A DNA stretch of 64,000 nt from Nitrospira sp. (GTDB lineage Bacteria > Nitrospirota > Nitrospiria > Nitrospirales > Nitrospiraceae): NCBI GenBank assembly GCA_013140455.1, contig JABFSU010000084.1:2163-66162 (forward strand), in the 5' to 3' direction. The notes beneath the pieces were generated by a model, which was given only the letters and a program-made list of their open reading frames with translations, was not told the origin of the DNA and did no database searches. The translations under genes were made by a program, and so were the position numbers. Shown piece after piece: positions 4,370 to 64,000 of the stretch; the first letter of the stretch is position 1; each line of letters starts with the position of its first letter.

Positions 4370-5575
4370 ATGAGCACGCTACCAATCACCGCAGACCAAC
4401 TGTCCACGCCGGACGTGATCGCCAATCCTTATCCTTGGTATCACGAGCTGCGCGAGCAATCGCCTCTGAACTATGAGTTTCTTCCAGCAGGAGCCGTCTC
4501 CGGCATGAATGAACCCGTGAAGGCCTGGGCCTTGATGAGGTATGCCGATGTGTACGGAGCCCTCCGGAACCATGAAACTTTCGCATCGAATCATTCGCTC
4601 GCGGGAAAAGTCGTTCCCCGTCTTGCGCTTATTCACGACGATCCTCCACGCCACACTCGTTTTCGCCACTTGGTCAACAAAGCGTTCACGCTGAAGCGGA
4701 TTGAGACACTGAAACCATGGATCACGACCGTGGTGAATGAGTTGGTCGACGAGATGGCGGCCTCGCAAGAAACCGAGTTCATGCAGGCCTACGCGATTCC
4801 TCTCCCTGTAAAGGTTATCGCGCGAATGCTCGGCATTCCAGGAGAGGACTACGTCAGATTCAAACTGTGGAGCGACACGTTCCTCGCCTTCAGCTCAATG
4901 ACCCCCGGAGAGCGCGCCAAGAGCAACCAGGAAATGATGGCGTATTTCGGCCAGATGGCTGCCGATCGACGAACACAGGCTGCGGAAGACCTCATTACCG
5001 CCCTGGTTGAAGCGAATGTCGATGGGGAGTCTCTTGCAGATGCTGAGATCATCGGTTTTTGCATGCTGGCCTTGATCGCCGGAAATGAAACGACCACCAA
5101 TCTGATCGGTAACATGCTCGGCATTCTGGTTGACCGCCCTGATCTCTGGCAGCAACTGCGGGCGGATCGAAGCCTGGTTGATAGAGTGATTGAAGAAACG
5201 CTCCGAATCGAAAGTCCATTCCAGCGGCTGTCCCGCATTGCGACTTGCGACACAGCGCTCTCCGGGGTCGCGATTCCACAAGGGTCCCTCGTGACCATCT
5301 ACTACGGCGCAGCGAACCGGGATCCCGCCGAGTTCCCCAATCCTGATGAATTCAGGCTGGACCGAGATTTACGCAACCACGTCGCCTTCGGAATGGGGAT
5401 TCACTACTGTCTGGGAGCGCCTCTCGCCCGAGCCGAAGCCTCCATTACGCTCAATACGCTCCTTGATCGCTTCCCGGTGATCGAACGAGGCCGCGAGCCG
5501 GCCCTTCGCCAAACAACGAGCCTGATGGTGTACGGCTATCAGCAATTGCCGCTCAATCTCAGAGCGTCGAATTAG
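4370..5575 (+). CDS. Cytochrome P450
   Basis: ATG 4370 follows GGGAGGA (4356-4362). It carries the I-helix motif LIAGNETTTN, the ExxR motif EETLRIESP and the heme-thiolate loop FGMGIHYCLGAPLA. Confidence 0.9.
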   Translation: MSTLPITADQLSTPDVIANPYPWYHELREQSPLNYEFLPAGAVSGMNEPVKAWALMRYADVYGALRNHETFASNHSLAGKVVPRLALIHDDPPRHTRFRHLVNKAFTLKRIETLKPWITTVVNELVDEMAASQETEFMQAYAIPLPVKVIARMLGIPGEDYVRFKLWSDTFLAFSSMTPGERAKSNQEMMAYFGQMAADRRTQAAEDLITALVEANVDGESLADAEIIGFCMLALIAGNETTTNLIGNMLGILVDRPDLWQQLRADRSLVDRVIEETLRIESPFQRLSRIATCDTALSGVAIPQGSLVTIYYGAANRDPAEFPNPDEFRLDRDLRNHVAFGMGIHYCLGAPLARAEASITLNTLLDRFPVIERGREPALRQTTSLMVYGYQQLPLNLRASN

Positions 5576-5615
5576 GACCACTGGACCTGTTTGTTTCGGA
5601 GAAACGAGGGCACAC

Positions 5616-6170
5616 ATGAAACACCACCCGGCAACCTCAGAGGCATGTATTCAATCTCTTGTGGCAGACGTATTTGGCGGGCTCTCAAGAGAAGAACTGC
5701 TGATGGCCTTATCCCTCATGCACCAGATTCTTGACGCGGACAGAAAGAGGGATGTGGAACACATCGTGACTTCACTGTCCAAGCTGCGCCGCGAGGCCGC
5801 CGGCTCCAAACTCTCGCCTCGGCACACTCCGAATGAGAGCCACAGGATGGCAACGCCGCCGGTACAGGGGAGTTATTCTCACCGTGTTGTGCGCTACTTC
5901 TTTTCCTGCCTCACGAAAATGCAAACGAGACTCGACGCCGAACCCAGGCACACTCATATTCCCAACAATACCTGCCATCTATCTCCCCGAGAGCTCACCG
6001 TCCTGCTATGGATGAAGGAAGGAAAGACCAACTGGGAGATCGCCCAGATCCTGGGGCTCAGTGAGCGGACCATTCGTTTTCACGTCGGCGGCATCTTCGA
6101 GAAGCTGGATGTCACGTCCCGCACGCAAGCAGTGGCCCGGGCATTGGGAGCAGGACTTATCGCCTCCTGA
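5616..6170 (+). CDS. LuxR-family transcriptional regulator (small, no receiver domain)
   Basis: The C-terminal HTH reads LSPRELTVLLWMKEGKTNWEIAQILGLSERTIRFHVGGIFEKLD. The roughly 120-aa N-terminal region has no recognisable domain. The gene starts 40 nt after the P450 stop. Confidence 0.8.
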   Translation: MKHHPATSEACIQSLVADVFGGLSREELLMALSLMHQILDADRKRDVEHIVTSLSKLRREAAGSKLSPRHTPNESHRMATPPVQGSYSHRVVRYFFSCLTKMQTRLDAEPRHTHIPNNTCHLSPRELTVLLWMKEGKTNWEIAQILGLSERTIRFHVGGIFEKLDVTSRTQAVARALGAGLIAS

Positions 6171-61046: not shown

Positions 61047-62204
61047 ATGGCATCCCTTACTATTCGTCTCGCAAGACAGCTGAAGCGAATCGCGATCACC
61101 GGACTCTGCCTGATCCCTGTGCTCGCAGGTGCAGCGCCGGCAGCGCCGATCGATCAGCCAGCCACTCCGTTTCGTCTGGCGCAAGAAGGGTATCGATACG
61201 AATTCCCGCGTGACCACGGCGCGCACGACGCCTTCCGCACCGAATGGTGGTACTACACCGGCCATCTGAAAACTACTGAGGGTCGGCGATTCGGATTTGA
61301 GCTCACGTTCTTTCGCCGCGCGATTGCGCCCGATCAAGTCGAGACGCACCCCTCTCGCTGGTCGGTCGATCAACTCTATCTGGCCCATCTGGCCGTCACC
61401 GATGTCACAGGCCAACGCTTTCACTTTCGCGACCGCATCAGTCGCGCCGGTTTGGGCAAGGCCGGAGCCGACGCCACCCGTCTCCACGTCTGGCTCGATC
61501 AGTGGCGCGCAGAATCGTCCGGACAGAGCGACCAGCAAAAGCTCGAAGCCAAAGCCGATGGTGTTGCGCTCACGCTGACCCTCACTCCCGCCAAACCGCT
61601 GGTCGTGCACGGCGAGCGAGGGATCAGCAAAAAAGGAGCGGCGGTAGGACAGGCCTCGCACTACTATTCGTTCACCAACCTCACGACAGCAGGCAATTTG
61701 ACAATCGGCACCGAAACCTACCGGGTCACCGGCACCAGCTGGATGGATCATGAATTCGGCTCAGCAGACTTGGGCGCAGATCTCGCCGGGTGGGATTGGT
61801 TCAGCATCCAACTCGCCGACAAGCGTGAACTCATGATCTATCGCCTCCGTCATACCGATGGTTCATCGGACGCAGCCTCCAGCGGAACGCTCGTGTTTCC
61901 TGACGGCCGCACGCAACACCTGTCAGCCATCGACATCCAATTGATCCCGCTCGATACCTGGACCAGCCCAACGAGCAAGGGCACCTACCCCAGCCGCTGG
62001 CAGGTCTCGATTCCGTCTCTGGAACTGTCGTTGAAACTGACCCCCCTCCTGGCCGATCAGGAATTGCGCACGACGCGCAGCACGCAAGTCACCTATTGGG
62101 AAGGAGCGGTAGATGTAACGGGGGCGGAGCAGGGAAAGCCCTTCAAAGGCCAAGGCTATGTCGAACTAACGGGGTATGCGGAGCGGATTGAGAAGAAGCT
62201 GTAG
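61047..62204 (+). CDS. AttH/CrtC-like lipocalin-fold protein (carotenoid 1,2-hydratase family)
   Basis: A signal peptide is followed by FPRDHGAHDAFRTEWWYYTGHLKTTEGRRFGFELTFFR and WMDHEF. Confidence 0.75.
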   Translation: MASLTIRLARQLKRIAITGLCLIPVLAGAAPAAPIDQPATPFRLAQEGYRYEFPRDHGAHDAFRTEWWYYTGHLKTTEGRRFGFELTFFRRAIAPDQVETHPSRWSVDQLYLAHLAVTDVTGQRFHFRDRISRAGLGKAGADATRLHVWLDQWRAESSGQSDQQKLEAKADGVALTLTLTPAKPLVVHGERGISKKGAAVGQASHYYSFTNLTTAGNLTIGTETYRVTGTSWMDHEFGSADLGADLAGWDWFSIQLADKRELMIYRLRHTDGSSDAASSGTLVFPDGRTQHLSAIDIQLIPLDTWTSPTSKGTYPSRWQVSIPSLELSLKLTPLLADQELRTTRSTQVTYWEGAVDVTGAEQGKPFKGQGYVELTGYAERIEKKL

Positions 62205-62214
62205 CTGATGGGGA

Positions 62215-62231
62215 AAGGGGCCTGACCCCTT
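62215..62231. terminator. Short hairpin between convergent genes (possible bidirectional terminator)
   Basis: AAGGGG-CCTGA-CCCCTT lies 10 nt after the TAG of the AttH-like gene and 22 nt beyond the stop of the minus-strand gene. There is no strong U-tract. Confidence 0.3.
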
Positions 62232-62252
62232 ATCTCCCCTCCAAATAAAGTA

Positions 62253-62822
62253 TTAGAACTCTTTGGGCCGCCTCCTTGTAATCGTGGGAGTGGGAAGCCG
62301 CTTCAATGGTCGGCTGAACTCGTTTATACAGCCAATAACTTCTCGCCTACCAAACCGATATTTTTGCTGCCTCCCATCGGCGATGAATACGAAAGTGAAA
62401 TCGCTCCAAGTTTGAAGAAACTTTTCTTCCTCGATTCCCTCACGTGGAGATGTTGGATCTCGGAATAGAGCTTGAATAAAGAAACGGCATTTAGCGGGCA
62501 CACCATTGGTTTCCTCCGGTGCCATCCCCTCCATGGTGAGCGGCAGGCGAAAACCCGTGATATCTGATTCGATATAGCCGCTGATCTTGTGAATGGGCAA
62601 CTTGGATTTATTAGTACCAAAACCCTGCAAACAAGTGATGTATACCGGCCCGTTGCCTTCAGCGAACATTCCTAAGAAACCGCTGAAGTCCCAACAAAGA
62701 CCCCACCATTTAAGACTTTGAACATACCTAAACGCGACGTAGGGTTTCTTGACAATGAATGCCAACCCCCTCCAAACGGAATGGAAAATTCGAACGACGG
62801 TAAAGACTGATATGTCAGCCAT
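62253..62822 (-). CDS. Hypothetical protein (189 aa) in a low-GC segment
   Basis: This is a clean ORF, third in a co-directional trio. The N-terminus is hydrophobic and I recognise no domain. Confidence 0.4.
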   Translation of the reverse strand: MADISVFTVVRIFHSVWRGLAFIVKKPYVAFRYVQSLKWWGLCWDFSGFLGMFAEGNGPVYITCLQGFGTNKSKLPIHKISGYIESDITGFRLPLTMEGMAPEETNGVPAKCRFFIQALFRDPTSPREGIEEEKFLQTWSDFTFVFIADGRQQKYRFGRREVIGCINEFSRPLKRLPTPTITRRRPKEF

Positions 62823-62885
62823 GAGCTCTAACTGTCCTGCAATTCACCGGCAGACGCGGAGCTGTTTGGGTGACACAAAGCGTCG

Positions 62886-63536
62886 TTACACCCCGATAAT
62901 TGCCGACATGTCTTTAGCGTATTGATCATAGGACCGCCAATCAATCAATGCTGTGACGTTGCTAGAGAAATTAATGAGATACTCGTTCCGCAAGTCGAAA
63001 GCTGGGTCGCGAACTGCTGGGTCAGTGGAGTAGCCATGTTTGGTGGCAAGACGTTCAAACACAGTAAGGTTCGGCTCTCGGAGTGAATTCTCATCAAGGT
63101 GCGCAAATTGATTCCGCCCAGCATAGATGATTAGTCCGATTGGCACCATCCGTACACGGCGTCCGACACAGAACGGTACGGCCTTAGACGAAGGCTTGAT
63201 GACACTTCCGAAGTCTGCGGGCACAGCCCTGTTATGCGAAAACCACTGGATTCCGGTGGCCGCAATTTGAAGCACGCATCCGCACAATGTAGCTAGCGCG
63301 AAACTCTCGGCTGAGAAATCGTGTTGTGCTTTTAGCGAAAGCCGCACTTGCTCTTCGTGCTCCGTAAACCAACGCTCCAAGGCAACTCGATGGTCTGCAT
63401 CGTTAGCAATCGACTCTGAGAAGATAGGAGGCGGTGCTTTTGCAAGAGCGGAAACGTAAGTGTCAATGCTGTCAAACAACTTTCTCGTGGCGCTTTCGGT
63501 GCGGCACAGATATTCGTTAGCGGACTGCATAGGCAT
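62886..63536 (-). CDS. Hypothetical protein with an RNxxxH (HEPN-like) motif
   Basis: The ORF is 216 aa. IIYAGRNQFAHLDEN (R141-H146, nt 63099-63116) fits the Rx4-6H HEPN signature with the Asn after Arg. The assignment is tentative. Confidence 0.4.
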   Translation of the reverse strand: MPMQSANEYLCRTESATRKLFDSIDTYVSALAKAPPPIFSESIANDADHRVALERWFTEHEEQVRLSLKAQHDFSAESFALATLCGCVLQIAATGIQWFSHNRAVPADFGSVIKPSSKAVPFCVGRRVRMVPIGLIIYAGRNQFAHLDENSLREPNLTVFERLATKHGYSTDPAVRDPAFDLRNEYLINFSSNVTALIDWRSYDQYAKDMSAIIGV

Positions 63537-63629
63537 CGGGGTCTAACTCCGGCGCTCACTTGCGCAAATGATGCGCGAGCTTGCGAACGCACCATAAAGC
63601 GTCGGTTACAGCGGCTGGTTGCAAAGCAT

Positions 63630-63920
63630 TCATTTCCCCTTGAAAGGCGGATTCAGGTTGTAGCCAACAGATGGATCGTTAGAACGCTCGGAAAGGATGT
63701 ACTCAATCTCTTTCTTATTCACTTCCGCCAACGTCGCTGTATCCGATGACCAAAGAATCTCCTTAGTCAGAGTAAAACGCTTGCGCTGTTCCGGAGTGAA
63801 GTCCTTTGCGACATATTCGTCTTTAGGACTTCCCATGTAGGTGAGGCTATTCGTGCGGTCTTGCCCAACGTAAATCTTTCCATTGGGGTAGGTGACCTTG
63901 CAGATGACACTCGTGCTCAT
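63630..63920 (-). CDS. Small GIY-YIG-like nuclease-domain protein (96 aa)
   Basis: SVICKVTYPNGKIYVGQ aligns by eye with the GIY-N(9-11)-YVG motif (I-TevI GIYQIKNTLNNKVYVGS). KKEIEYIL and GYNLN align with the conserved Glu and the GYN region. The canonical Arg/His after YIG are not obvious. Confidence 0.45.
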   Translation of the reverse strand: MSTSVICKVTYPNGKIYVGQDRTNSLTYMGSPKDEYVAKDFTPEQRKRFTLTKEILWSSDTATLAEVNKKEIEYILSERSNDPSVGYNLNPPFKGK

Positions 63921-64000
63921 GCTCTAAAGGAAAAACCCGCGACCTTCTGTGCATGCCTTATAATCCAAGCTTCTTCAGTTTGCGAACAATACGCCACAAT

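Follow-up and report, generated by a model that had tools for sequence, protein, structure and literature searches.

The window analysed here, a 64,000-nucleotide stretch of Nitrospira sp. DNA (C17:2163–66162 of a 3.79-Mb draft genome in 143 contigs, 95.5% complete and with a guanine-plus-cytosine (GC) content of 0.576), ends in three small genes, A, B and C, whose nature and origin are the subject of this study. Gene A (63630–63920) encodes 96 amino acids, gene B (62886–63536) 216 and gene C (62253–62822) 189; all three lie on the minus strand as compact, co-oriented units of a single open reading frame (ORF) each, with spacers of 93 nt between A and B and 63 nt between B and C, as an earlier sequence-only reading of the window had laid them out. 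The switch in coding strand that it also remarked on is real, and arises because the neighbour of the trio, a gene at 61047–62204 matching the Pfam families CrtC and Lipocalin_9, is read from the plus strand. This CrtC/lipocalin-like gene belongs to the core-genome flank and forms one edge of an apparent variable hotspot.

The DNA of the trio is compositionally foreign, in agreement with the low GC content first estimated from line counts. GC fell to 0.46–0.54 in 400-nt windows over the three genes, and the 1873-nt island as a whole has a GC content of 0.498 against the genome mean of 0.576 (s.d. 0.0295; z = −2.66), a value as low as this being reached by only 2.0% of equal-sized windows of the genome. 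GC at third codon positions was likewise 0.52–0.59 in A, B and C compared with 0.67–0.76 in the neighbouring genes. The trio had been thought to be truncated by the window edge, which is not so: the contig runs for a further 1.8 kb, over which GC returns to about 0.58. Direct scans of the three proteins against Pfam, NCBIfam, PHROGs and PADLOC returned no significant match, and profile searches of their families against PDB sequences returned chance-level matches only.

Gene linkage across relatives

The sequence-only reading had taken the trio for a three-gene module, and this proposal failed when linkage was counted. We sampled 63 genome loci carrying a relative of B and 80 metagenome loci carrying a relative of A. 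Gene C was found at none of the 63 B loci and an A-like sequence at just one of them (L038, weighed below), while neither B nor C was found at any of the 80 A loci. No ORF family adjoined B at more than 4 of its 63 loci, and the cases of sharing came from closely related genomes; no MNT or antitoxin partner for B was present among the neighbours at these loci. PADLOC detected no defence system in the trio. A, B and C are thus not co-conserved.

Individual relatives showed the same variety of settings. An 88% relative of A has a DUF1801 gene after it, and one at 82% is flanked by an NMT1-type gene and a convergent gene; a 67% relative of B adjoins a ParE toxin–antitoxin pair, and a 73% relative of C belongs to another small-ORF array. 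The complete trio was repeated only in loci L066 and L067, which are 96–98% identical to the window and share its junction with the CrtC-like gene, and so represent the same population and not independent evidence.

Cassette boundaries and attC-like junctions

We compared the ends of gene C with those of its homologues. In locus L068, at least 14 small ORFs are lined up in one direction, and a 71%-identical homologue of C is the fourth cassette among them; the divergent recombinase gene beside this row codes for an integron integrase (TIGR02249, 476 bits; cut-off 265). Canonical attC sites, at least 15 of them and with the form YCTAAC...GTTAGRY, occupy the spacers, and their consensus folds into R''/R' and L''/L' stems with bulged bases and compensatory changes. 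The 5' boundary of C reads G|TTAGA(A/G)CTC-ATG in the window and in L066, L068, L080 and L082 (G|TTAGAACTC-ATG in the window, and found also in the other four), and the 3' end of C reads GAGTTCTAA(C/T) followed by the L'' arm in the same five loci; outside these limits, at both ends, the sequences differ. In the array-bearing hosts, cassettes would be moved by integrase-mediated recombination at attC, with the crossover at the G|TT of the R' box, and such a crossover would explain why the C contexts become homologous precisely at the TTAGA that precedes the ATG. A start of homology at the point of crossover is what identifies an integron cassette. ORFs of 133 aa lying 5' of C in L068 and L080 were considered as a possible partner gene and ruled out, as their sequences are mutually unrelated.

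Immediately 3' of C in the window, a truncated attC (62205–62259, minus strand) could be aligned with the complete attC sites of L068, L080 and L082. Its R''-like box GTTCTAAT overlaps the C stop codon, and its L'' arm and central hairpin (62210–62239) are retained, the hairpin folding more stably than shuffled sequences (z = −2.4 / −2.6); the distal L' arm and the R' box have gone, and the 3' end of the CrtC-like gene stands in their place. The protein terminus bears the mark of the same site. Window C ends in ...ITRRRPKEF (189 aa), whereas the ending ...ITRRAAQ or similar (187 aa) is found in a 98%-identical relative and in most of the family, and this difference (window 62253–62270) arises because the stop has shifted into the R''-like box.

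The other two junctions are more degenerate. The spacer between B and C (62823–62891, minus strand) is attC-like, with an R''-like GTGTAAC (62885–62891) overlapping the B stop codon and an R'-like GTTAGAG (62826–62832; 6/7 to GTTRRRY) 3 nt ahead of the C start codon. The A–B junction (63537–63629, minus strand) resembles an attC remnant that travels with gene A, and reads, in order, an R''-like TGCAAC/CTGTAAC, then CCGACGCT...AGCGCCGG, then an R' box GTTAGAC (63541–63547; 7/7 to GTTRRRY) 4 nt ahead of the B start codon.

Homologues of B also occur as cassettes. In a Bacterioplanes metagenome-assembled genome (L011), a B homologue has attC-like sites on both sides, and an integron integrase (361 bits) is encoded about 1.1 kb away. 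With the other ORFs of the same B-homologue loci as a baseline, GTTRRRY was found within 40 nt 5' of the start in 11/63 B homologues against 28/967 other ORFs (odds ratio 7.1, P = 8e-6), and RYYYAAC at the stop in 9/62 against 49/984 (P = 0.005). A covariance model built from the L068 attC sites alone matched sites abutting B homologues in five loci (L057, L005, L055, L011 and L031). Two custom attC detectors were also tried and set aside, one being too strict and the other too unspecific (6 matches against 2.4 expected, P = 0.03).

Between the integrase and the B cassette, L011 carries a further feature (5190–5995): two tandem, near-identical units of about 380 nt, with no clear forward ORF, each ending in the same attC-like site (…CAATCAAAC…GCTGATCGTT). 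These may be duplicated cassettes that are ORF-less or antisense.

For gene A, support for cassette status is weaker than for B and C. Its 5' leader (63921–63965, minus strand; conserved as TAAGGCATNCACA..GG.CG...CYTTTAGARY-ATG) recurs 5' of A homologues of 73–88% protein identity (L078, L083 and L136), and a conserved trailer of 35 nt (ATGCYTTNYAACCAGCCGCTGYACCCGACGC; window 63595–63629) is found in the same three loci, so that both flanks are retained in unrelated genomic surroundings even where protein identity has dropped to 73%. The leader, about 40 nt long, has no obvious Shine–Dalgarno sequence; no sigma-70-like promoter was called 5' of A, and an Rfam scan matched leader and trailer to no family.

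Predicted proteins and genomic setting

Protein A has the GIY-YIG fold that had been proposed for it. Its AlphaFold2 model (predicted local distance difference test score (pLDDT) 90.9) shows the order beta-beta-alpha-beta-alpha, and residues Y17, Y28, G30, R46, E71 and N88, the counterparts of the GIY-YIG catalytic set, do not vary among 32 sequences. A Foldseek search of viral models (BFVD) gave 27 matches at E ≤ 1e-3, the best being the GIY-YIG nuclease of Mycobacterium phage Gaia (E = 8.6e-9, template-modelling (TM) score 0.82, 36% identity); Seg-like, intron-associated and homing GIY-YIG endonucleases followed, mostly of 180–350 aa, and most of the named matches are annotated as GIY-YIG, homing or intron-associated endonucleases. 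With tblastn, A found gp105 of phages Gaia and Nebkiss (38% identity, E = 7e-13) and Seg-like proteins of Rhizobium phages. The A family comprises at least 620 clusters, some of which carry the NCBI name ‘GIY-YIG nuclease family protein’.

Profile methods placed A near the edge of detection. A itself did not match Pfam PF01541 (GIY-YIG) at E ≤ 1, nor reach its gathering score, and 9/32 relatives matched it weakly (best E = 0.026); PHROG 314 (homing endonuclease) matched A at E = 0.07, and hhalign of A against GIY-YIG domains harvested from the genus gave 6.5%, with an A alignment low in diversity. The model retrieved nothing significant from PDB by Foldseek, the best whole-domain match being 1zg2, a UPF0213 protein, a group that we take to be a stand-alone GIY-YIG family. 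On its model and conserved residues, A is predicted to be a bare GIY-YIG catalytic domain of the I-TevI/Seg-like homing-endonuclease branch, without linker or DNA-binding domain, and probably for that reason cuts with low specificity or needs a partner.

Comparison with known members of the fold makes the same point. A shares with the GIY-YIG homing endonucleases (I-TevI, Seg) and with gp105 of Gaia and Nebkiss the catalytic fold and the GIY, YIG, R, E and N residues, at 36–41% identity to phage proteins. It differs from the homing endonucleases in consisting of a catalytic domain of about 95 aa alone, so that it does not have their architecture, and in scoring below the Pfam GIY-YIG threshold.

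Protein B is an orphan. Its family numbers 137 clusters at 90% identity and 530 representative clusters at 50% identity, ranges over Cyanobacteria, Proteobacteria, Nitrospirota, Bacteroidota-group lineages and plasmids, and consists almost wholly of stand-alone proteins of about 210 aa; homologues lie on four plasmids, every one annotated as hypothetical. The protein is all-helical, as had been expected: its AlphaFold2 model (pLDDT 89.6) is all-alpha, with eight helices. An exhaustive profile search with B found close relatives only and no link to a named family.

The sequence-only reading had assigned B to the HEPN RNases on the strength of its RNQFAH motif (residues 141–146, at 63099–63116), and beyond the invariance of that RNQxxH motif the assignment found no support. 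R141, N142 and H146 are invariant in 42 sequences, together with C123, G125, R126, N193 and W200, and a DPAFDL block is nearly so. None of these 42 family members gave a HEPN-clan Pfam match at E ≤ 10, hhalign of B against the HepT alignment (PF01934) gave 0.1–0.2%, and PADLOC matched B to no Abi or HEPN model. Among 350,542 PDB chains the best Foldseek match to the B model had E = 0.8 and TM 0.25, with no HEPN protein in the top 50; Foldseek handles all-alpha folds poorly, and this null is not an absolute exclusion of HEPN. A string of the Rx4-6H type is in any case common, being present in 72% of ORFs of 180–260 aa in this genome, and four times in B.

B thus resembles HEPN RNases (HepT/DUF86, Abi and Cas13/Csm6) in being all-helical and in an R-N-x3-H motif like the RNxxxH of many HEPN families, and differs from them in profile, in finding no PDB structural match, in having no MNT or antitoxin partner, and in the placing of its motif, at the C terminus of a helix preceded by a beta-hairpin. 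From the model, B appears to be an enzyme-like all-helical protein with a fold that has no solved relative; the invariant RNQxxH suggests catalysis, possibly on nucleic acid.

Protein C had been described as having no recognisable features, and it is indeed an orphan, with no match in Pfam or PDB. Its family contains only 24 clusters, with an alignable conserved core of about 135 aa (about residues 52–182).

The trio forms part of a longer island of about 3.6 kb, in which the CrtC-like gene is followed by C, B, A, a repeat, a helix-turn-helix (HTH) gene, higA, higB and a second repeat. The last three genes lie directly upstream of the trio and on the same strand, in the 1.8 kb past the window: a winged-helix gene of the HVO_A0114 family (L002 6547–6915, minus; Pfam E = 5e-27), the HigA antitoxin (L002 6959–7243, minus; TIGR02607, E = 9e-32) and the HigB toxin (L002 7256–7543, minus; PF05015, E = 3e-18), with a promoter-like site ahead of higB. 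Toxin–antitoxin modules are common within cassette arrays (PMC10661359).

Two direct copies of a 121-nt repeat (L002 6278–6398 and 7683–7803, equal to C17:66277–66397 and 67682–67802) bracket the HTH, higA and higB genes; of the features for which the DNA past position 64000 had been thought worth examining, direct repeats are present, and a tRNA search found none. The copies are 90% identical, the repeat can by itself fold into a long imperfect hairpin, and the second copy lies almost at the contig end. We considered these repeats as attC sites and rejected them, as a core of about 50 nt is dispersed over several contigs (C91, C142 with several copies, C32, C78 and C12) and they lack R''/R' geometry. 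The 121-nt repeat has a 17-nt core (CAGCAAGGCSGCWGGCG) in common with the hairpin-repeat family of the window; the score equals the best of 200 shuffles, and the relationship is unproven.

The CrtC-like gene is conserved in 27/31 relatives. Eight relatives were inspected at this gene, and in none did A, B, C or HigBA adjoin it; relatives carry other small genes at the same site. In the relative G014, a gene 4.7 kb downstream of CrtC has a 73%-identical orthologue at C16:84–1130 of the window's genome, which resembles the F510_1955-family glycosylhydrolases below the curated cut-off. C17 and C16 share a 41-nt overlap, the end of the former being identical to the start of the latter, and their adjacency is supported by synteny with G014. 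The equivalent region of G014 (L099 5550–6219) holds two small ORFs of 97 and 119 aa, and because copies that are 81–85% identical lie at C121:18051–18719 of the window's genome, such small gene pairs appear to move between hotspots within the genus.

Origin of the cluster

Clusters of attC sites that lack an integron integrase are known as CALINs, reportedly as defined by Cury et al. in 2016. We consider it likely that the segment forms the distal end of a small cluster of this CALIN-like kind, which was acquired horizontally, lacks an integrase and is partly decayed, that A, B and C are unrelated single-gene cassettes within it, and that the cluster lies in a lineage-specific variable hotspot between the CrtC-like gene and the glycosylhydrolase-like gene of the next contig. 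The locus would then be an ordinary kind of bacterial accessory DNA, of an already known type. The three genes would be adjacent by chance, each family moving between genomes on its own. After capture, the sites here would have degenerated, and because hairpins are weak, the last R' has been lost and the integrase is absent, the cassettes are probably fixed in place. Any expression would rest on read-through or on the conserved leader of A.

Known arrays match the locus in many respects. Like sedentary chromosomal integron arrays and CALINs, it has co-oriented, mostly single-gene, low-GC cassettes of unassigned function with short spacers, R'-type boxes (GTTAGAC and GTTAGAG) just before the next start codon, B and C homologues in integrase-linked arrays (with identical boundaries for C), an adjacent toxin–antitoxin module and no integrase nearby. 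It differs from them in having only three cassettes, in two junctions that lack convincing hairpins or a consensus R'', and in a terminal attC without R', and from a complete integron in having no intI in the draft genome.

Several observations weigh against a cassette origin. The window's R''-like boxes (TGCAAC/CTGTAAC, GTGTAAC and GTTCTAAT) fit RYYYAAC at 5–6/7 only; the A–B and B–C spacers fold no better than shuffled sequences (z = +0.3 / −0.6 and z = +1.4 / +1.0, respectively); and the L068-derived covariance model, which is very host-specific, found no match at the window junctions. The element 3' of A shows no covariation-supported hairpin. Homology upstream of A extends about 40 nt beyond the putative crossover point, leaving the 5' boundary of an A cassette undefined. 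Clear attC contexts were seen in only a minority of A and B homologues (for A, about 15 of the 80 loci are attC-like bounded, as judged by eye). The lack of an integrase, by contrast, belongs to the favoured explanation: a TIGR02249 search of the genome gave no match above the cut-off (best 87 bits) and tblastn with the L068 integrase found only Xer-like genes at 28–29% identity. These nulls cover a 95.5%-complete draft, and an integrase could lie on an unassembled piece.

The strongest competitor draws on these same weaknesses, and we give it a minor though real share of the probability: the island would be unrelated to integrons, a generic hotspot insertion (by homologous recombination of the flanks after transformation, or associated with repetitive extragenic palindromic (REP) elements or miniature inverted-repeat transposable elements (MITEs)), in which the genes are ordinary orphan accessory genes and the GTTAGA strings are coincidental or related to translation. 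Weak junction hairpins, off-consensus R'' boxes and the missing integrase are as this would have it, as are the 121-nt hairpin repeat that brackets the HigBA block and has core copies on other contigs, the other small genes that relatives carry at the site, and the lack of clear attC at most A and B homologues. It does not, however, account for the boundaries of C, which match attC-delimited boundaries to the base in three independent arrays, one of them beside an integrase that passes the cut-off, nor for the significant enrichment of R' and R'' boxes at B homologues, one of which lies in an integrase-bearing array. The two explanations are partly compatible, since the cassettes could have formed elsewhere and arrived here by ordinary recombination.

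Far less probable is the idea that the three genes make up a single operon-like module, anti-phage or toxin, in which a GIY-YIG DNase would work together with a HEPN RNase and a further, accessory protein; the co-occurrence counts have already largely refuted it. Its appeal lies in co-directional genes with short spacers in foreign DNA, in a GIY-YIG domain in A that is real and an RNQxxH in B that is invariant, and in the intact trio of L066 (96–98% identity), although this second population is essentially the same strain population as the window. A further observation for it, and against independent cassettes, comes from Kineobactrum sediminis F02 (NZ_PKLZ01000008.1; L038 3931–5215), where a B homologue is immediately preceded by an A-like gene, with order and strand as in the window, and the pair stands between ORFs that by eye resemble a type I restriction R subunit (1088 aa) and a primase (716 aa). 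A frameshift breaks the A copy there in two (57 + 56 aa), however, whereas B is undamaged, and the arrangement may have come about by chance in accessory DNA or may hint that the two genes are occasionally paired. Beyond L038 the 63 B and 80 A loci show no co-occurrence and B has no conserved neighbour, relatives of 67–88% identity have other neighbours, PADLOC is negative and the HEPN assignment of B is unsupported.

Least probable of all is that A is a free-standing selfish gene of homing-endonuclease type, inserted alone with its leader and trailer beside two cassettes, for although the proteins closest to it in structure and sequence are GIY-YIG endonucleases of phages (homing, Seg-like and intron-associated), its conserved non-coding flanks travel with it and several homologues sit singly between ordinary genes (L083–L085), it has no DNA-binding domains for targeting, the phage proteins it matches are mostly of 180–350 aa, and some A homologues lie in attC contexts.

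A cassette cluster also revises the suggestion of a defence or toxin island. A looser form of it remains apt, in that small nuclease, toxin-like and toxin–antitoxin genes do gather at this site, but as independent cassettes and not as one system. The adjacency of small nuclease-like genes in low-GC DNA would here be a chance juxtaposition of independently mobile cassettes and not a new defence system, and co-occurrence counts over many contexts are needed before such neighbours are named a module.

The nearest functional parallel is with bacteriophage-resistance integron cassettes (BRiCs), whose homologues outside integrons lack attC or keep a pseudo-attC, and among which a HigAB cassette has defence activity (bioRxiv 10.1101/2024.07.02.601719). 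The likeness is that both are small cassettes of unassigned function, some with nuclease-type domains; the differences are that A, B and C have no PADLOC match and are not known to confer a defence phenotype, and that they are environmental and chromosomal where BRiCs lie on mobile integrons of clinical plasmids.

The locus would thus illustrate a cassette cluster after loss of the integrase and of most attC structure, and suggests how fossil cassettes can be recognised, by comparing gene boundaries with those of homologues in intact arrays. The function of the B family is the most interesting remaining point, as this is a widespread family with a confident model that has no PDB neighbour. One speculative proposal, to which we attach minor weight, is that B stands for a family not described before, whose members are effectors encoded by one-gene cassettes. 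With a fold that lacks solved relatives and an active site around the invariant RNQxxH, CxGR and DPAFDL residues, B would act alone as a toxin or abortive-infection protein that cleaves nucleic acid, and it could be either a very divergent HEPN-like RNase or a new type that spreads through integrons. Integron cassettes of unassigned function have repeatedly proved to be compact phage-defence genes (bioRxiv 10.1101/2024.07.02.601719), and for that reason both the B family and A, a highly conserved minimal GIY-YIG domain, merit attention at the bench.

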